From IMG/VR virus record IMGVR_UViG_3300028172_000069: DNA of 64,000 bases, one strand, 5' to 3'. The position numbers and the translations under genes were made by a program. Below are positions 22,831-53,517 of the stretch, in pieces. The notes beneath the pieces were generated by a model. That model did no database searches and was not told where the DNA came from. It saw only the letters and a program-made list of their open reading frames with translations. The DNA is from a virus. Lineage: Duplodnaviria; Caudoviricetes. Each line of letters opens with the position of its first letter. Position 1 is the first letter of the stretch.

Positions 22831-23163
22831 ATGCGCAAATCAATCATGTTTGTTTACGAGGTGTTGGGTGACAGCACCGAGGTGTTCTTCATCCCGGACG
22901 CGGCGAAGCTGCCAAAGCCGGTGATTGACGCAATGAAGACGGCACGCAACACGGTGATGAATCGCGACGACTTGAGTGCACCTCAGACCGACGCGCACGA
23001 AATCATCACATCGGCGGTCAGCGAGGAATCGGCAGTCGAGTACATCGACGAGCCGTATAAAAAGTTTGTAGGTACGCTGCTGCCCTACAAAGTGCGTGGC
23101 TCCACCAGCGCGCTTAACGTGGGTGACAAACTATTCTACTTGCGCTGCGGTTTCGTGGCTTGA
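22831..23163 (+). CDS. Hypothetical protein
   Basis: 110 aa; GAGGT RBS. Confidence 0.7.
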   Translation: MRKSIMFVYEVLGDSTEVFFIPDAAKLPKPVIDAMKTARNTVMNRDDLSAPQTDAHEIITSAVSEESAVEYIDEPYKKFVGTLLPYKVRGSTSALNVGDKLFYLRCGFVA

Positions 23164-23168
23164 CTCAA

Positions 23169-23192
23169 AACAGGGTGCTTCGGCGCCCTGTT
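23169..23192 (+). terminator. Probable terminator hairpin
   Basis: AACAGGGTGC-TTCG-GCGCCCTGTT; weak U tract. Confidence 0.6.
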
Positions 23193-23243
23193 GTCGTTTC
23201 TGCGGTCTACGCTGTGCGCAGTCTACAGACCATGGTCGTTCGA

Positions 23244-23360
23244 TACCTGAACTATAAAAAGAACCATTAGAGGTGTTGACTACTGATTTCAGTAATGATA
23301 TACTGTCTGTGACTAGCCGAACCGAGCATGCCACATAGTGGTTACGACTTAGTTTAGGTT
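23244..23360 (+). promoter_or_regulatory. Promoter cassette A: sigma70 promoter, spacer operator and flanking inverted boxes
   Basis: -35 TTGACT 23276-81, 17 bp, -10 TATACT 23299-304; operator TACTGATTTCAGTA 23281-94; boxes 23244-66 and 23339-60. Confidence 0.85.
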
Positions 23361-23399
23361 ACACACTCAAACATGAATAGTTTACAGGATACCACGAAC

Positions 23400-24395
23400 A
23401 TGACCGCTACCAAGACCGTTGCCAAGAAAGCCACCGTTGCTAAAGCCGCCGCTCCTACCGTAGCCCGTAAAGTCACCCGCACCGCAACCACCGAGACCAA
23501 AGCCATGACCAAGCCTGCAAACAAAACCGCCGCCACCAAGACCGTTGCTGCCAAAGTCGTGAGCAAGAAGCCGGTCGTTGCCGCTGCTGCCAAGCCTGCT
23601 GTTAAAGCTCCGGCCAAGCGCACCAAGAAAGTTGCGCGCAAGCCGAAGGTCGTCAAGTACGCCAAGCGCGTGATCGACGTTGCAGCCTTCGCCACCAGCA
23701 AGCGCATTGTTAGCGACCTGCTGGTCACCAAGCTGACCGAAGCTGATGACCTGATCATCACTCGCGAAGGTCAACCTGAAGGCAAGAAGCTGGTAGGCAA
23801 AGCGCTGTGGGTTCAACTCGGCGAGAAGAAAGTCGAGAACTACGGCGTTGTGTCCGATGTGATCGTTTCCGTCGGCATTGACGGCAACAAGATTGTTTAC
23901 TTCCTCGAGGCCGTCTGCGGTGATACCACCTTCCCGCTGCACGCCATCGACAAGGTCGGTGCCAAGTTCATCGTTGACCTGAAAGCGACCATGCCTACTC
24001 GCGCCAACATCGAGCTGATCGGCGTGGACGAAATCATGGGCAGCAAGCGCCCAGGTCGTGCACCTGCAAACACCAACGCTGGCAAGCGCGCTGCTCGCGT
24101 AACCCGCGCTGCCCGCGCTGCCGCTGTCAAAGCCGAAGCTGCTGCCGAAAAGGCGCCTCTGGTTGTTGGCAAGGACGAAATGAAACCAGGTGCTTACACC
24201 AAGGGTGCGTCGATCATCATTGACCCGACCATCAAAGGCGACAAGATCGCCAAGGTGTTCATCAAGACCCTGGGCCGTGGCACCAAGAAAGACCCAGTGC
24301 GCCGTGTTCGCCACGTCCACACTGTCAAAGGTCAAATCTGCCCGCTGAACGAACTGCGTGCGCACCGTGGCGGCTTCAAAGCCATCGACCTGTAA
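23400..24395 (+). CDS. Hypothetical protein with histone-H1/AlgP-like Ala/Lys/Thr-rich N-terminus
   Basis: TKTVAKKATVAKAAAP...KPAVKAPAK; start at CGAAC-ATG 23400 (alternative 23373). Confidence 0.7.
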   Translation: MTATKTVAKKATVAKAAAPTVARKVTRTATTETKAMTKPANKTAATKTVAAKVVSKKPVVAAAAKPAVKAPAKRTKKVARKPKVVKYAKRVIDVAAFATSKRIVSDLLVTKLTEADDLIITREGQPEGKKLVGKALWVQLGEKKVENYGVVSDVIVSVGIDGNKIVYFLEAVCGDTTFPLHAIDKVGAKFIVDLKATMPTRANIELIGVDEIMGSKRPGRAPANTNAGKRAARVTRAARAAAVKAEAAAEKAPLVVGKDEMKPGAYTKGASIIIDPTIKGDKIAKVFIKTLGRGTKKDPVRRVRHVHTVKGQICPLNELRAHRGGFKAIDL

Positions 24396-24409
24396 ACTCC
24401 GTACAACTC

Positions 24410-24429
24410 GGAGCGGGACGTCCCGCTCC
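24410..24429. repeat. Perfect 20-bp palindrome
   Basis: GGAGCGGGACGTCCCGCTCC, intergenic. Confidence 0.85.
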
Positions 24430-24447
24430 ACATAGGACACCTCGAAC

Positions 24448-25407
24448 ATGATTATCGAAAACTCTTTCACTGCATACGCCGACTCCGCAGTAGCCCGTAC
24501 CAAACGCGGCTTCACCACTGCATCCAAAATCACTGGCCTCGCCATCCGCTCTGACCTGCGCAAGCTGGAAGAAGCTGAGACCAAAGCGACCATCAAAGCT
24601 CTGGCTAAGGCAAGCAGCGTCAAGACCTTGAGTGGTGGCAGCAAACTCGACGTGAAGCCTGCAGAGGCTAAACCCGCCAACCACGCCATCCGACTGTCTG
24701 GTTACTACGTCTGCCGCCAGCGCCAGCGGAACGTGCTCGAAATCATGCAGGGCCCATACGCATCGTACGGGCAAGCTCAAACTGCCTCGCGTCGCTACCT
24801 GACCAAGACGCAGGACGACCCTCGCAAGATCGAGATACTGCGTGGCATCACGCTCCGCTCTCGTACCACGAAGTTTGCAGCCAACTTTGTCGAGGCGGTT
24901 GTTCGCAACGTCGCACACGCGCACCCGCTGCCGAAGATCGCCACTGCGGACGAGAAGGCACGCATTGCCAAGCAGCGTGAACTCGCCAAACAGCGCATTG
25001 CCAAGCGCAGAGCTGAGGACCTGATCCGCAGCCTGGGTAGCCCTGACTACTCCAAACTGTTCGTTGTGGACGACAAGCGCAAGCGCATCATCCACGGCCC
25101 GTTCGGTAAGCACGCTGATGCTGTCAAGGCCGCTGCCGGTTTGAAGAACGTGGTGATCCTCTCTGGTCGCCAATGCAACAACGAAAGCCTGAAGTACGCA
25201 TCCGACTTCAAGGCAAACAAGGAGTACAAACTCACGGTCGGCATGTTTGCCGTCGGTGTTACCGTGAAGCTCAACGGTAAGAAGGTGAAGATTACCGCCT
25301 TCGACAAAACCCACAAGATCGTGCGTACTGGTTGGGGTGATTTCTTCATGGTCGATTGCACTTATGACCTAAAGACCCGTACCATCATCGCACCAACCCA
25401 AAAGTAA
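24448..25407 (+). CDS. Hypothetical basic protein
   Basis: 319 aa, Lys/Arg-rich; CGAAC-ATG start. Confidence 0.7.
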   Translation: MIIENSFTAYADSAVARTKRGFTTASKITGLAIRSDLRKLEEAETKATIKALAKASSVKTLSGGSKLDVKPAEAKPANHAIRLSGYYVCRQRQRNVLEIMQGPYASYGQAQTASRRYLTKTQDDPRKIEILRGITLRSRTTKFAANFVEAVVRNVAHAHPLPKIATADEKARIAKQRELAKQRIAKRRAEDLIRSLGSPDYSKLFVVDDKRKRIIHGPFGKHADAVKAAAGLKNVVILSGRQCNNESLKYASDFKANKEYKLTVGMFAVGVTVKLNGKKVKITAFDKTHKIVRTGWGDFFMVDCTYDLKTRTIIAPTQK

Positions 25408-25416
25408 GGAGTACCC

Positions 25417-25686
25417 ATGGCCGCAATCATCGCAGCACAACAACTCGCCAGAGCAATCAAAGCTGCCGCCAAGGCACGCGAGGAGAGCTTTGACTCGGAA
25501 GCCGCCGACGCCGCAGTCGAGGCGCAGGGTAGCAAGTTCCCACCTGTCAACTCCGAACAGTTCTACACGCTCACCATCCTGCAGGCGTGCGAGAAAGTTT
25601 GCGCACCTGATCTGGTTGAACCCGTTCGCATCATGCTGACCACGGCGTGGAACGACAGCCAGATGTGGGCAGACAACATCAAGTAA
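25417..25686 (+). CDS. Hypothetical protein
   Basis: 89 aa; AAGGAG RBS. Confidence 0.7.
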   Translation: MAAIIAAQQLARAIKAAAKAREESFDSEAADAAVEAQGSKFPPVNSEQFYTLTILQACEKVCAPDLVEPVRIMLTTAWNDSQMWADNIK

Positions 25687-25692
25687 CGCTGA

Positions 25693-25724
25693 ACGGGACG
25701 TCTGCCTTAGTGTAAACGTCCCGT
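25693..25724. repeat. Inverted repeat ACGGGACGT-N14-ACGTCCCGT
   Basis: 9-bp perfect arms, same core as the 24410 palindrome; loop contains TGTAAA. Confidence 0.75.
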
Positions 25725-25745
25725 ACTACCTTCCAAGGAACTGCC

Positions 25746-25904
25746 ATGCGCAAGCAAACTCCGATACTGCCAATCGCGCCAGGCCCTGTGCGTATTCTCC
25801 CAATGCCGGAACCCTGGCCGTACATTCACCAGAAGCATCCGATCGAACCTGCTGTCTGCCCAATCTGCGAACACGAACAAGGAAAGCGCAAATGCCAGCC
25901 ATGA
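25746..25904 (+). CDS. Small Pro-rich CxxC protein (52 aa, not in ORF track)
   Basis: MRKQTPILPIAPGP...AVCPICEHEQGKRKCQP; AAGGA RBS. Confidence 0.55.
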   Translation: MRKQTPILPIAPGPVRILPMPEPWPYIHQKHPIEPAVCPICEHEQGKRKCQP

Positions 25905-26308
25905 GAAAGAAGAAAGATACCTTTACTCAGACCCAACCAGAGAGTCTGGCAGACTTCCCAGAGCTGAGCATCTACGCCGAGGCTGGGCAGCGCGCAGAAG
26001 CCCATCGCCAACACCTGATCACGCTCAAAGGCAAGTGGGGCTTTGCCGAAATCGACTTCGACACCTCCACGTTGTTTACCAACGGCGAGTGCGAACGACT
26101 GGTCCTGCGCGTTGACCACGACGAACACTTCAATGTGGTGTATCAGGCTGCCGAACAATACGAACTGCCTCGCCGTGAAGTTGGCAGCGACTGGTGCGAC
26201 TCGCCCGCGAAAGCCCTCAGCCAACTCGTCAAGAAGTTGGAGGCCGAACGCAAGGCTTACGAGAAATCGTTGACCGTCAAGAAAGCCACCAAGCCGAGGA
26301 AGTCATGA
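25892..26308 (+). CDS. Hypothetical protein
   Basis: 138 aa; start 25892 or 25901. Confidence 0.65.
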   Translation: MPAMRKKKDTFTQTQPESLADFPELSIYAEAGQRAEAHRQHLITLKGKWGFAEIDFDTSTLFTNGECERLVLRVDHDEHFNVVYQAAEQYELPRREVGSDWCDSPAKALSQLVKKLEAERKAYEKSLTVKKATKPRKS

Positions 26309-26766
26309 GCCAGACGCATATAACCCATGGCTCTCGTCCAGGGTACGATTGCCTACGGTTCACCCAGAACGGTTCTCTAGGTGTACCGACGCCATTGCAT
26401 GAATGGCAGACGGTTTCACTTGGTGGTAAGTTTTGCGAGTACACGGTAGCTCCCGATGGTCGAATTACCTACGTACCCGGCCTTGCGACCGACGTTCCGG
26501 ATTGCGACTGTGTTGCCGCACTCTTGGATGGACGACTCACAGTTGACGACTTGGTATTGAGCGGCCACGACGTCATGGGTAACGGCCACGTCTTTCGACT
26601 TCGAGTAGTGAACAACTACGTTGTGGAAGTACGCGAAGGTGCCACTGTCCTGTTCAAGCGAAACTGGCCACCTGCTAACCCAAAGTACCTCAGCCAGAAG
26701 GTGCGCCAGTTCAACGCTGGCATCAAAAAGGTACGCGAGCTCCTACGCGTCAGGCCTAAACGATGA
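26305..26766 (+). CDS. Hypothetical protein
   Basis: Start moved to ATG 26305 (GAGGA RBS, ATGA overlap). Confidence 0.65.
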   Translation: MSQTHITHGSRPGYDCLRFTQNGSLGVPTPLHEWQTVSLGGKFCEYTVAPDGRITYVPGLATDVPDCDCVAALLDGRLTVDDLVLSGHDVMGNGHVFRLRVVNNYVVEVREGATVLFKRNWPPANPKYLSQKVRQFNAGIKKVRELLRVRPKR

Positions 26767-26909
26767 CCTGGCTCTGCAAACTCATGGGCTGTCGCTGGCG
26801 TGAGAAGTATTACACCTACAGCGACGACCACATGTGGCGTTACACCAACTACCGCCACTTCAAATACTGCCCACGTTGTGGCAACCCAAACCCGAATAGT
26901 GAGAACTGA
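26763..26909 (+). CDS. Small zinc-binding protein, DUF1660-like (48 aa, not in ORF track)
   Basis: MTWLCKLMGCRW...YCPRCG. Confidence 0.55.
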   Translation: MTWLCKLMGCRWREKYYTYSDDHMWRYTNYRHFKYCPRCGNPNPNSEN

Positions 26910-26910
26910 T

Positions 26911-28125
26911 ATGAAATCCGTAGCCATCTTCCGCGGTCAAGCAATGGTCCCAGCAGTCGAATGGAACCGTGAGAGTTCACTCCGCCTGTTCGATGCAGTT
27001 GGTAAGTTCCGACACATGGCCATCACGCCTGAGGCGGCAGAAGAACTGCGCAAGCTCCACATCGCTGTTGACAGTGGTGTACCTACCCACTTCCAACTCT
27101 CCAAGCCTATCGTTATGAGCATGATGAACGTGGCGTCGGAGCTCATGACCCAGCGCACCTCGTTGCTGCGTATGGTGCACGCCCAGTACGGTGTGATCCG
27201 ACACAGCGACGACGCGCTCGACGATCACCAGCTGTTGCGCAAGCTGCGCGAAGCCTTCTACAACATGCCGCAGGCGATCATCGACGACCTGTGTCGCACC
27301 CTTGGCCTGAACGGTATCACCTATGCGTTCAACGCCGATAACCTGCTGCGTGAATACGCGCTGGAGACTCTGGTCGAAACCGTGGTTGATTGCTACGACC
27401 AAACTCCTCTGGAACTGGTGTTTGCAGCGCCAAGTGAAGTGCTGCAACCTGCCGACCCCGACGACTTCGAGTTCATCGAGGATGACCTGAGCGAACTCGA
27501 CGCCACCCAAGTTGTCAGCCTTGGTGCATATCTGGGCGTCGCCCGTGAAGGCATGGGCATGGACGAAGTGGTGCTGGCATTGTGCGAACTGGAGCGCGAA
27601 GTCGTGCTGGCCGCAGGTAAAACTCTCGGCTTCCTTGACGCGGGTCCTGAATTCCTGGACGACCTCGACGATGAAGACGATTTCATCGAGGACGAGGCTG
27701 AGAAGGCGCTCCTCGATCCAGCGAACGAAGACGAACCCGAAGACCCGAACGCCACAGACAACGACTCGGCAGAAGTGCGCCTGCTGAATCACCTTCAAGC
27801 GCAAGAGCACGAAGTCCTGCTGGAAGTCTTTGATCGCCTGACCGAACTCTACGGTCAAGGCATTGCGCTGTCGAAAGACGAATTGGCCACAGCGATTCTC
27901 GACCGTGCCATCGAAACTCCAAATCTGGCACAACTGGTGCTGCGTGGCATGAAGCTGTACTCGGAAGACCTGCCGTCGTCTGACACTCTGGTCACCCATG
28001 ATCTGACCATGAGCCACGGTCGCAACTATCAGGACGTCACGCTGCTGGGCGAACTGCTCGCAGTGTGCGCCTACTCGCTGAGCCACCCAGACGCTGAGCA
28101 ACTGGTGCTGGTACTCCAGGAGTAA
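26911..28125 (+). CDS. Highly acidic hypothetical protein with repeated helical modules
   Basis: Start moved to ATG 26911; D/E-rich tracts such as FLDDLDDEDDFIEDEAE. Confidence 0.7.
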   Translation: MKSVAIFRGQAMVPAVEWNRESSLRLFDAVGKFRHMAITPEAAEELRKLHIAVDSGVPTHFQLSKPIVMSMMNVASELMTQRTSLLRMVHAQYGVIRHSDDALDDHQLLRKLREAFYNMPQAIIDDLCRTLGLNGITYAFNADNLLREYALETLVETVVDCYDQTPLELVFAAPSEVLQPADPDDFEFIEDDLSELDATQVVSLGAYLGVAREGMGMDEVVLALCELEREVVLAAGKTLGFLDAGPEFLDDLDDEDDFIEDEAEKALLDPANEDEPEDPNATDNDSAEVRLLNHLQAQEHEVLLEVFDRLTELYGQGIALSKDELATAILDRAIETPNLAQLVLRGMKLYSEDLPSSDTLVTHDLTMSHGRNYQDVTLLGELLAVCAYSLSHPDAEQLVLVLQE

Positions 28126-28144
28126 ACAAATCGCGCTGTACAAG

Positions 28145-28167
28145 AGGGGAGCTTCGGCTCCCTTTTT
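28145..28167 (+). terminator. Intrinsic terminator
   Basis: GGGAGC-TTCG-GCTCCC followed by TTTTT. Confidence 0.85.
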
Positions 28168-28177
28168 GCGGTCTGAA

Positions 28178-28296
28178 TACCTTACCTATAAAGATAACCG
28201 TTAGACCACTTGCACTACTGATTTCAGCTATGATATAATGACAGCACGAAGCGAAACCGAGCTAGCGGCATACTGGTTACGCTAGTAGTTAAGGTA
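28178..28296 (+). promoter_or_regulatory. Promoter cassette B
   Basis: -35 TTGCAC 28210-15, 18 bp, -10 TATAAT 28234-39; operator TACTGATTTCAGCT 28216-29; boxes 28178-200 and 28274-96. Confidence 0.85.
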
Positions 28297-28319
28297 AGAT
28301 TAGTTTGCAGGAGAATCAC

Positions 28320-28523
28320 ATGGTCAAGCGCATCTTGGAAATCGCAGTCGTCAGCATCAACTACCGCTGCCCACACTGCAACTTGGTAATATCGCTCGGT
28401 ACTGGTGACCACCCGCTGGGCAAACCGTTCACCTGCTTCTGCAAGCGCGAGGTCCTGATCGACGAGGACACCGTGTTCCAGATCAACCAGCTCAACTGCA
28501 AAGCCAAGCTTCTGCCTCAATAA
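28320..28523 (+). CDS. Small zinc-ribbon protein
   Basis: CPHC...CFC; AGGAG RBS. Confidence 0.65.
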   Translation: MVKRILEIAVVSINYRCPHCNLVISLGTGDHPLGKPFTCFCKREVLIDEDTVFQINQLNCKAKLLPQ

Positions 28524-28573
28524 CCACCGCGCACCCGAACGCGCAAACAATCGAACATGACCGGAGAACGAAC

Positions 28574-29200
28574 ATGACCAAACGCATCCAACCACGTGGC
28601 GGCAAAGACTACACCTTCAAACAAATCGTTGAGCAACTGGACCTGCGCGATTCAGCCTGCCTGATGTTCAACGAGAACAACATGGAGCAGAACATCCAAG
28701 ATTCGCACATCAGCGAACTGGACGTACTCAAGCTGCCACACTGGGCCGACTCGCTGTGGACCTACAAGTACGAGACGGACGAGTGGATTCCTGTCTTCAA
28801 GTGGTCAAGCGCAAACACCGTCAGCATTGACGAGCTGATCGACAAGGAGCCGCATATCGACCCGTATGCTGAGCGCCCTGGTGTTCTCTGGTGCGTACCC
28901 AAGGGCCAGACACGCGAACAATACCACAAGGTGGTTGTTCCCGAAGACGGCAGTGACCCGTACATCACTGGTTACGGTTCGGATGATCGCCACCCGCTGC
29001 CGACGTTTGACGACAAGGGTCTGAGCGAGCACTACTACATCCGGCGCAACAACGCTGGACGCTGTGACTACTGCAAGGGCCAGGTAGAGCGGCGGTTCAA
29101 CTACCGTGACCCTTCCGAGGGTTGCTGCAAGCTGTACGAAGTTTGCGCGCCGTGCATCGACCGCGCACGCAAAGCCAACGCAGCGGAGTTTGACGAATGA
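28574..29200 (+). CDS. Hypothetical protein with C-terminal zinc finger
   Basis: CDYC...CAPC; GGAG RBS; CGAAC-ATG. Confidence 0.7.
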   Translation: MTKRIQPRGGKDYTFKQIVEQLDLRDSACLMFNENNMEQNIQDSHISELDVLKLPHWADSLWTYKYETDEWIPVFKWSSANTVSIDELIDKEPHIDPYAERPGVLWCVPKGQTREQYHKVVVPEDGSDPYITGYGSDDRHPLPTFDDKGLSEHYYIRRNNAGRCDYCKGQVERRFNYRDPSEGCCKLYEVCAPCIDRARKANAAEFDE

Positions 29201-45987: not shown

Positions 45988-46002
45988 GGCCTGTTTATGC
46001 AC

Positions 46003-46016
46003 TACTGATTTCAGTA
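46003..46016. promoter_or_regulatory. Operator palindrome copy abutting an RBS
   Basis: TACTGATTTCAGTA directly before AAGGAG; preceded by TGCAC as in cassette B; no -10 box. Confidence 0.7.
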
Positions 46017-46027
46017 AAGGAGCAGTC

Positions 46028-46411
46028 ATGCTGCGATTCACTGCACAACATAACCAAGAGGTTGTAGCGACGCATAGCCTGAGCAACCCGAGCCGTTGGG
46101 AGTCTGTGCTGAACAACACCTTCATCCAGCCATATGCTGGTGAAGTCATTAAGCTGGAACGCTGGCAGTTCCTCCAGATCATCGTCAACATTAGCGCTGA
46201 GTCCCAGAAGCTGCTGGGTATGATCGGACACAAGATGGGCAACATTCACACGCTGGTGCACGCCAAACGGCACCCGGCCTACGTCAACATTCGCGTCGGT
46301 GAGATTGACGACCCGATGGTTGATCTGATGGAGCTCAACGCCGTGCTGGGTCTGCTGTACTCTGCGGCTAAGGGCAGCGACGTGGTCACGCTAACCAACG
46401 CGACTACCTAA
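46028..46411 (+). CDS. Hypothetical protein
   Basis: Start moved to ATG 46028 (AAGGAG RBS). Confidence 0.7.
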   Translation: MLRFTAQHNQEVVATHSLSNPSRWESVLNNTFIQPYAGEVIKLERWQFLQIIVNISAESQKLLGMIGHKMGNIHTLVHAKRHPAYVNIRVGEIDDPMVDLMELNAVLGLLYSAAKGSDVVTLTNATT

Positions 46412-46521
46412 CCTATAATCTTCACCACTAAGTCCTTGTACTACTGATTTCAGTTATGCTATAATGGTCGAGTGAAGCATACTATGCTCGCACTTCATTG
46501 GTTATGGACTTAGTTAAGGTA
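46405..46521 (+). promoter_or_regulatory. Promoter cassette C
   Basis: -35 TTGTAC 46436-41, 18 bp, -10 TATAAT 46460-65; operator TACTGATTTCAGTT 46442-55; boxes 46405-27 and 46499-521. Confidence 0.85.
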
Positions 46522-46528
46522 AACGAAC

Positions 46529-47068
46529 ATGACAACAAAACTACGCGGCGCACCAAAGCACGTCACCGAGGCAGCGAATCAAGGCCTCAAGGTGAAAGCC
46601 AAACGCAAACTATTCGGCTTGTCGTCTGCTGACGTCGGTCGCATGATTGGCTTCGACGGTGTTCGCCTGAGTCGCGCCGAGTCTGGCTTGCGAGTAGTTG
46701 GCGCCTACGGCATTCTCAACCGTGCCCTGCACTTCCTCAAGGTGCTGGAGCAGAAGCACGGTGTTCGTCCACTCAAGGCAGTGAAGAAGACGCAACTCAC
46801 TGTGGTCGCCAAGGCCATGGTCGAGCGTGTGTTTATCTCAGGTGCCGACGTGGTCACAGTGCCTGTCGAGGACGTCGAGGTGATCGTTACTCGGGAGACG
46901 GGCGCCGAAGTGTTTGTGGTGAATGAGCTGGCGATGCTGCTGGCTGCATACTGCGCACGCACCAAGACGACTCAAGGCGAAATGTACAACGTCGCCCTCA
47001 ACAATGGGATCGTGACATTCATGCGGTCCGCAAACTTTGCACCAATCGCATGGGAGGTTCTGCCATGA
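46529..47068 (+). CDS. XRE/Cro-like HTH DNA-binding protein
   Basis: KRKLFGLSSADVGRMIGFDGVRLSRAESG; CGAAC-ATG. Confidence 0.6.
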   Translation: MTTKLRGAPKHVTEAANQGLKVKAKRKLFGLSSADVGRMIGFDGVRLSRAESGLRVVGAYGILNRALHFLKVLEQKHGVRPLKAVKKTQLTVVAKAMVERVFISGADVVTVPVEDVEVIVTRETGAEVFVVNELAMLLAAYCARTKTTQGEMYNVALNNGIVTFMRSANFAPIAWEVLP

Positions 47069-47565
47069 GCCGCATTGCATTCCACATCTTCTACGCCGAA
47101 CAGCGCGCCAAGTCTGGCCTGAACCGTGCAGAGTTTGCAGCCAAGATCGGCATTAGCCACGAGACTGGCAGCAAGTACGAGAACGGCGAGTGGTACCCGA
47201 GCTTCGCCACGCTGCGCAAACTCGAACGCACCATGGACCAGAATCTGGAGCTGTTCTACATGCCGCCTGCGTATCGTCTGGAGCTCGACATTCTGACCGA
47301 CGCGCCCAAGGCATTGCCCGAAGAGTTGCTGCGCATCATTCGCAAGCGTCGTGCGTGCACCTTCAAGTACGTCGGTGACATTGGCCGCACGGGCGCGTGC
47401 ACCTTTCAGTTTCAGTCGAAGACGCGAGCGCACCTCGAGGAGATTATCGACACCTACTCGGCGAACGACCCAAGCGAAGCCGTGTACCTGAAGAACACCA
47501 TCAAGATGGTCGACTTCAATCCCGATGATGAATTCGGTGGCGTCAAGAACAACACCGTCGAGTAA
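47065..47565 (+). CDS. XRE family HTH transcriptional regulator
   Basis: RAKSGLNRAEFAAKIGISHETGSKYENGEWYPSFATLRKL; GGGAGG RBS. Confidence 0.85.
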   Translation: MSRIAFHIFYAEQRAKSGLNRAEFAAKIGISHETGSKYENGEWYPSFATLRKLERTMDQNLELFYMPPAYRLELDILTDAPKALPEELLRIIRKRRACTFKYVGDIGRTGACTFQFQSKTRAHLEEIIDTYSANDPSEAVYLKNTIKMVDFNPDDEFGGVKNNTVE

Positions 47566-53254: not shown

Positions 53255-53478
53255 TGACTACCAAAGTCAAATGGAAGCGCACACGCAAGCACAAACCCAC
53301 CGAGTCCGGACCGTACATCGTTACCATGGACGAAGACAGCGAGGAATGTACCAGCGCTGTCTGGGCGAACGCTATCGGAACTCAAAAAGAAGGCTTCTTC
53401 CAGCAACACGACGGACGCATTGTTCGCGTTAATCCAATCGCCTGGGCTGAAATGCCGAAGCCGTATCGCCCGGCTTGA
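53254..53478 (+). CDS. Hypothetical protein (DUF551-like)
   Basis: KW....KP.ESG.Y.V....AWAEMPKP pattern. Confidence 0.55.
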   Translation: MTTKVKWKRTRKHKPTESGPYIVTMDEDSEECTSAVWANAIGTQKEGFFQQHDGRIVRVNPIAWAEMPKPYRPA

Positions 53479-53503
53479 CTACTGATTGCAGTTAAAGTGT
53501 AAA
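53475..53503 (+). promoter_or_regulatory. Putative promoter with variant operator
   Basis: TTGACT, 17 bp, TGTAAA; spacer TACTGATTGCAGTT. Confidence 0.55.
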
Positions 53504-53517
53504 CGCAAGGTGAGAGC

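Follow-up and report, generated by a model that had tools for sequence, protein, structure and literature searches.

The cassettes of the window and their relatives

The window analysed here, 64,000 nt in length, is part of a 137,684-bp IMG/VR virus contig (55.8% G+C, estimated 52% complete). Among named phages the Pseudomonas jumbo phage PaBG (Baikalvirus, 258 kb) is its nearest relative, with 70% identity in the baseplate hub protein. Three cassettes, A, B and C, lie in this window, and their neighbouring genes are all on the plus strand. The earlier note had described each of them as a sigma70-type promoter between inverted boxes, and both the sequence and a covariance model (R1, built from six cassette copies) confirm this layout at the positions collected in Table 1. 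The stretches aligned around the three cassettes have a mean column identity of 74%.

Table 1. Positions of the cassettes, their parts and related elements in the window.
Feature	Position	Strand	Details
Cassette A, full model match, 128 nt	23239-23366	+	R1 114 bits, E 1.6e-23
A left arm (~-66 to -42)	23245-23269	+	outer box ACCTGAACTA, inner box GAACCATTA; 1 mismatch to the 25-bp word
A promoter, predicted	23276-23304	+	-35 TTGACT 23276-23281; 17-bp spacer; -10 TATACT 23299-23304
A spacer palindrome	23282-23293	+	ACTGATTTCAGT; TG at 23296-23297
A right arm (~+27 to +50)	23336-23359	+	TAGTGGTTACG and TAGTTTAGGT; spacer 1 nt below usual
A dyad axis	23302
Intrinsic terminator 5' of cassette A	23171-23199	+	G+C hairpin, then T run; fold
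Cassette B, full model match, 130 nt	28173-28302	+	R1 120.9 bits, E 4.4e-25
B left arm	28179-28203	+	0 mismatches to the 25-bp word
B promoter, predicted	28210-28239	+	-35 TTGCAC; palindrome 28217-28228; TGa; -10 TATAAT 28234-28239
B right arm	28271-28295	+	0 mismatches, minus-strand reading
B dyad axis	28237
Intrinsic terminator 5' of cassette B	28146-28167	+	sequence and fold
Cassette C, full model match, 128 nt	46400-46527	+	R1 117.4 bits
C left arm	46406-46430	+	1 mismatch; overlaps upstream ORF stop codon 46409-46411
C promoter, predicted	46436-46465	+	-35 TTGTAC; palindrome 46443-46454; TGc; -10 TATAAT 46460-46465
C right arm	46496-46520	+	outer box AAGGT = Shine-Dalgarno for ATG at 46529
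C dyad axis	46463
Arm-less spacer word	46001-46014	+	directly 5' of ribosome binding site
Core-only variant, without arms	53475-53506	+	TTGACT, ACTGATTGCAGT and TGTAAAC

The first gene behind A (23400-24395) encodes a 331-aa protein with no Pfam hit, whose first ~90 residues are rich in Lys, Ala, Thr, Val and Pro, like histone H1 or AlgP; homologues (29-41% identical) stand behind cassettes in three relatives, and the composition suggests an early nucleoid-binding protein. The gene directly behind B (28320-28523) encodes a zinc-ribbon-like protein of 67 aa (CPHC...CFC), which may be a small early regulator and has homologues in PaBG (51%) and in a 277-kb relative (62%), there again directly behind a cassette. 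Two adjacent Cro/C1-type HTH genes follow C (46529-47565; HTH_3, E 2.4e-8; HTH_31, weak). No homologue of them was found in PaBG, Lu11, HRDY3 or two IMG/VR relatives, and they look like lineage-specific cargo; their products were also considered as binders of the boxes, and ruled out for lack of conservation, since neither PaBG nor the complete relative has them.

A megablast search of 8 kb against a phage collection gave no match, nor did Rfam and tRNA scans of the window. Further relatives were found by a box-based pattern scan of IMG/VR, and the covariance model recognizes 27 distinct full-length cassettes in 8 PaBG-like phage records; this contig has 3 of them, PaBG 7, the complete 277.6-kb relative (G006) 6 and each of five fragments 2-3. 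The number of three copies given in the earlier note is thus correct for the contig but not for the family. The boxes exceed background frequency: the left-box pattern has 3 matches versus 0.02 expected from shuffles, the right-box pattern 5 versus 0.03 and the spacer-word pattern 7 versus 0.18, and in the whole 137.7-kb contig both the left box and TGnTATA(A/C)TG occur only in A, B and C. Lu11 gave no match to the covariance model, and since TGnTATAATG is absent from both Lu11 and HRDY3, neither could be used as a more distant relative; a metagenome scan with the core pattern returned only chance matches, besides one contig already known from IMG/VR. Taken together, these comparisons show that A, B and C belong to a conserved family of ~129-bp predicted early-promoter modules of PaBG-like (Baikalvirus-type) jumbo phages. 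Phages of this type rely on the polymerase of the host; PaBG has sigma-factor genes and lacks an RNA polymerase of its own (PMC7412058), which is the reason why host-type early promoters are expected in phages of this kind.

Every one of the 27 copies is 128-130 nt long, and the internal distances vary by no more than 1 bp across all copies of the 8 records, so that the box spacing is indeed conserved in relatives. The distance from the left outer to the left inner box is 17 (26/27 copies), from there to the -10 box 37 or 38, from the -10 to the right inner box 39-41, and from the right inner to the right outer box 21 (again 26/27). In all copies a 25-bp word covers -66 to -42 on one side of the promoter and +27 to +51 on the other; it reads ACCTnAnCTA-w-nnn-CR-TAACC-R-n-TA, and is asymmetric, without internal two-fold symmetry. 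While the boxes are bipartite and inverted as first described, their extent had been underestimated, the conserved arm being 25 bp long and including a shared C-R before TAACC. Because the words are inverted on both sides of the promoter at these distances, the pair has a two-fold axis inside the -10 hexamer: the midpoint falls within the hexamer in 27/27 copies, A, B and C included, in agreement with the original observation. The boxes are 91 ± 1 bp apart from centre to centre, or ~8.7 helical turns, which is not an integer.

The promoter core, TTGnnn / 17-18 bp / TGnTATAAT with an A-rich left spacer, is present in 27/27 copies; to the sigma70-like assignment made earlier it is therefore necessary to add that the -10 box is of the TGn-extended type. 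Conservation is concentrated in the two arms, a variable -35 (TTGnAC-like), the TGn, TATAAT and following G and, more loosely, the first part of the leader; as had been noted for the three cassettes, the interior diverges in the 27-copy alignment while the arms stay conserved. The right end of the cassette coincides with the Shine-Dalgarno sequence or lies just 5' of it. A terminator is found directly upstream in ~11/27 copies, outside the conserved unit, and none directly upstream in the other ~16; no local stem-loop was found within the conserved unit of the kind carried by the promoter-early stem-loops (PeSLs) discussed below. The variable leader, from the start to the right arm, has some propensity to form hairpins (mean z -1.16 ± 0.28). 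In several phages many cassettes have the word (T)GCGGTCT(G) between terminator and left arm (for example at 23202-23209 and 28168-28175). Another word, CTGTAAAGC, stands upstream of some left arms; it was not counted as an upstream promoter, because it is in the conserved coding end of a 5'-3' exonuclease gene at one orthologous locus.

The spacer palindrome ACTG-N4-CAGT is a module of its own, since it is missing from six of the 27 cassettes and is found elsewhere without arms, at 46001 and 53478 of the window and also in PaBG. In the longer form (TTG)ACTACTGATT(T/G)CAGT, without arms and without a good -10, it occurs in the window at 46001-46014 and 53475-53506, and in PaBG at 116542, 116660 and 5165. 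Probably the arm-less word serves some other factor, as an operator or promoter element in its own right.

A 25-bp word on both sides of the promoter

Inverted arms can be conserved as a word of DNA or as a helix, and the 27 copies allow the two to be compared. The same 18 positions are conserved in the left and in the right arm, while the three free positions pair in 11-13/27 copies versus 11-12 expected. At columns 22/126 a purine is kept on the motif strand in both arms, and as a helix this gives an A.C mismatch in 17/27 copies. No consensus structure was found by RNAalifold over the 27 copies (-0.74 kcal/mol), nor does the pairing of the arms extend inward of the boxes (p 0.28-0.58); the inward pairing suggested by cassette 4383 of PaBG (-43.5 kcal/mol, z -4.7) is an exception. 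A G.U wobble found at one column in 12/27 copies was considered as a sign of a plus-strand RNA, but it is offset by the 17/27 A.C at the other column, which would be a wobble on the other strand, and G.U is therefore no evidence for such an RNA. Matches to the word with two or fewer mismatches occur only in the cassettes and at five further box sites, all beside promoters. In general, these features of the arms look like those of a DNA word that is recognized by a protein.

Some signs point the other way. The arms can form 15-19 of 21 pairs, with two to five mismatches that include G.T and A.C; the number of pairs per cassette has a variance of 0.90 versus 1.86 in shuffles (P 0.01); the duplex energy is better for cognate than for non-cognate arms (p 0.02); and there are two compensatory double changes (ACGT/ACGT and CAA/TTG), where by our own estimate ~0.15 are expected. 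The shuffle controls are marginal, as the observed value is reached in 16-35/500 of them (19/500 for the covariation score). These signs that complementarity between the arms is itself selected are weak and mutually dependent (p ~0.01-0.05).

The reading that we favour, tentatively and at a little less than an even chance, is that the arms are a putative operator pair for a DNA-binding protein that flanks RNA polymerase and controls early genes. A conserved protein, phage-encoded or possibly from the host, would recognize the 25-bp word and lie right next to the polymerase footprint, on its upstream and its downstream side. The promoter class would be controlled as a group, most likely by shut-off, through bridging of the two sites or clamping of the polymerase. 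Since the right arm also occurs alone, the primary site would be the one downstream. Of the structures proposed in the earlier note the protein-bridged loop fits best, as the arms behave like a word and the free positions pair at chance level; the looping itself is a step that we infer. Several observations count against the operator pair: the search for a binding protein yielded no candidate; the boxes lack the symmetry of classical dimer operators; the ~8.7 helical turns between the boxes are not an integer number; and an operator alone at +27 to +51 would be a weak roadblock. The overlap with the Shine-Dalgarno sequence, the lack of C at the free positions of the right arm and the weak signs of pairing just described also weigh against it.

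The five further box sites are four lone right arms and one extra left arm, the latter 58 bp upstream of a full cassette. The lone right arms (PaBG 81276 and 95668; 277-kb relative 230217 and 214980) make two orthologous pairs, and lie 38-39 nt 3' of a TGn -10, thus at +27 to +51, without a left arm. In ~13/27 cassettes the outer right box, (G/A)AGGT, is the Shine-Dalgarno sequence, with the ATG 5-10 nt on, whereas ~14 copies conserve AGGT although it does not work as one. The right-arm free positions are never C, while the mirror positions of the left arm do have G, and this points to a constraint at the level of RNA. In ~10 other copies the right arm is followed by a second motif, AGTTTGCA, with its own Shine-Dalgarno. 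As (A)AGTTTGCA(C/G) this motif is seen wherever the right arm is not itself the Shine-Dalgarno, ~15-40 nt after the arm (for example at 28302-28309) and just before the true one, and also behind the lone arms of PaBG and the 277-kb relative; its role may be that of an operator in translation or of a further DNA site.

The overlap with the ribosome binding site brings in, as the main alternative, an RNA switch of the type known from T4 genes e, soc, 49 and I-TevI (PMC3014915), which we regard as unlikely, though still worth serious consideration. In RNA that reads through from upstream, the left arm (ACCU...) would pair with the right arm (...AGGU) and either hide the ribosome binding site or make an RNase III-type stem, while transcripts from the cassette's own promoter, which lack the left arm, would be translated. 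With ViennaRNA, the outer stem in read-through RNA has P > 0.5 in 15/27 copies, and the mean accessibility of AGGU is 0.18 there versus 0.42 in own-promoter RNA; yet in A, B and C the predicted pairing is only 0-0.12. Read-through is likely in the ~16/27 copies that have no terminator directly upstream, but eleven copies come directly after one. The number of pairs that the arms can form, its low variance, the compensatory changes, the AGGT that serves as Shine-Dalgarno and the hairpin propensity of the leader are all in favour of the switch, and the lone right arms would fit a primary function in the 5' UTR. On the other hand, the variable positions do not covary, A.C is kept at one column, U is never found opposite a conserved G although G.U could be tolerated, and the consensus fold energy is negligible. 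The ~14 copies that conserve AGGT without a Shine-Dalgarno role are not accounted for either, and a switch would not require the left arm to keep its place relative to the -35.

Exchange of gene modules at the cassettes

The cassettes are found at syntenic sites in phages whose flanking proteins are only 30-70% identical. In PaBG the counterparts of the genes that precede A and of those that follow B are joined by a single cassette: in the present contig (G000) and in the 277-kb relative two cassettes bracket ~4.8 kb where PaBG has one cassette, and the last gene of this A-B block has no homologue in the relatives. Another example is provided by two close relatives, G003 and G004, which are 90-92% identical to about nt 106 of their cassette 1, regain this identity 6 nt before cassette 2, and have unrelated cargo of 1.9 kb versus 0.55 kb in between. 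At the level of sequence comparison these junctions show that the cassettes act as homology patches for the exchange of gene cargo between phages. Cassette C was also considered as an orthologue of PaBG 4383, and rejected as such because the flanking proteins are unrelated.

Such exchanges could also mean that the arms belong, as terminal inverted repeats or as sites of recombination, to a mobile promoter module (a MITE, a Correia-like relic or the site of a cargo recombinase), the symmetry about the -10 being incidental. We consider this improbable. A size of 129 bp with 25-bp inverted ends and no coding capacity is MITE-like, the breakpoints of the cargo replacements and the PaBG junction lie in or at cassettes, and the lone arms and the one tandem left arm resemble recombination scars. 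However, the flanks have no consistent target-site duplication and no empty site was found; copies with diverged interiors and conserved arms at syntenic sites indicate selection rather than recent transposition; and homologous recombination between conserved patches is sufficient for the swaps, as proposed for PeSLs (PMC2839356).

Far less probable still is that supercoiling drives the DNA to extrude a cruciform or a single-strand hairpin, by which the -10 would be presented or hidden. The position of the dyad axis agrees with it in 27/27 copies, but the two to five mismatches in 21 arm positions (G.T and A.C among them), the 66-nt non-complementary loop that must melt and the lack of inward pairing do not; the extrudable structure with arms of ~58 bp put forward in the earlier note is not supported on the last of these points, as there is no complementarity past the boxes. 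Invertons have in general the layout of a promoter flanked by inverted repeats, and the least probable of all the alternatives, also raised earlier, is inversion, by a recombinase, of the 66-bp core that the arms enclose: 27/27 copies in 8 records point at the downstream gene, each arm is asymmetric and not a palindromic site of the recombinase type, after inversion the promoter would face a terminator or the last part of the gene upstream, and metatranscriptome contigs assembled from four independent libraries hold the forward form only, although rare variants could be missed in this look-up.

The phage is present in fourteen soil metatranscriptome runs, as contigs of ~10-140 kb across this region, and neither transcript ends nor an inverted form are seen in them. 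In runs X14, X17, X19 and X20 the phage contigs reach ~140 kb (window 22900-28700), with word depths of 180-1300. Contigs of such length in metatranscriptomes reflect either heavy DNA carry-over or genome-wide transcription in active infection.

Known layouts and the control of early promoters

These results can be viewed in the light of repeated and flanked promoters known from other systems. In the literature searched we found no promoter analysis of PaBG-like phages, nor a description of the dyad-boxed architecture. Among its closest parallels are the PeSLs of the T4-like phages RB49 and phi1 (PMC2839356, PMC4122927), and the dyad-boxed cassettes are a hitherto undescribed variant of such repeated early-promoter cassettes. 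Like the present cassettes, PeSLs are repeated composite motifs of ~100 bp that extend from the stop codon of one gene to the next Shine-Dalgarno; they have a strong early promoter that is sigma70-like, with A/T-rich sequence on its upstream side (here predicted from sequence), are sited among poorly conserved small genes, and provide homologous patches for the insertion, deletion and replacement of modules (PMC2839356). Unlike them, PeSLs have a short local G/C stem-loop terminator (often GGGG...CCCC) in or beside the promoter, whereas the present cassettes have two long-range inverted 25-bp words, 91 bp apart from centre to centre, and their terminators, where present, are outside the conserved unit. 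The phage lineages are unrelated.

With regard to the operator pair, the natural comparison is with the GalR repressosome, in which operators at about -60.5 and +53.5, each palindromic and bound by a dimer, flank the promoter. Here too, two related sites at ~-54 and ~+39 flank a sigma70 promoter in the middle of a short enclosed segment; however, symmetry belongs to the pair and not to the single site, many promoters of a lytic phage share the layout, and the binding protein is a postulate. Asymmetric words dispersed over a phage genome at many promoters are known from phage P1, whose C1 repressor recognizes an asymmetric operator of 17 bp at many promoters, sometimes paired and looped; P1 operators overlap the promoters, and have no fixed dyad about the -10.

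Two of the alternatives have their own precedents. Correia elements, MITEs of Neisseria, are ~100-150 bp long with 26-bp inverted ends, have promoter activity, and give mRNA hairpins that are processed by RNase III; their copies are near-identical, with insertion polymorphism and a TA duplication at the flanks. The present cassettes resemble them in size and in their inverted ends, and differ in being syntenic, diverged inside and without duplication. In T4 the ribosome binding site of genes e, soc, 49 and I-TevI is masked by a hairpin, and the region of its 5' arm contains a promoter (PMC3014915). As in these genes, the promoter of the cassettes is embedded between segments that can pair, the 3' one of which contains the Shine-Dalgarno in ~13/27 copies, and both arms would occur only in transcripts that start upstream. 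The T4 hairpins, however, are gene-specific, with continuous pairing and embedded promoters that are late, while here one word stands at 27 early promoters, with interrupted pairing and without covariation.

If we return to the operator pair, its bearing is on the shut-off of early promoters, which is poorly understood in large lytic phages that use the host polymerase; in T4 itself it has been called 'not completely understood' (PMC3014915). For this question the family offers a compact handle, with one 25-bp word at two fixed positions and 27 natural variants, while the promoters with only a right arm are natural controls that lack the left one. The cassettes also extend the PeSL idea, in which promoter cassettes are points of module exchange, to an unrelated lineage of jumbo phages. 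A bolder proposition, which we consider possible but unlikely, is that all strong host-type early promoters of these phages are held in one rigid two-fold frame, and that a single phage protein, bound to the 25-bp word on either side of RNA polymerase with the -10 in the middle, switches the entire class off or on at once by bridging or clamping: if true, it would amount to a global early-promoter switch of a new kind, the frame of which doubles as an exchange point for gene modules.
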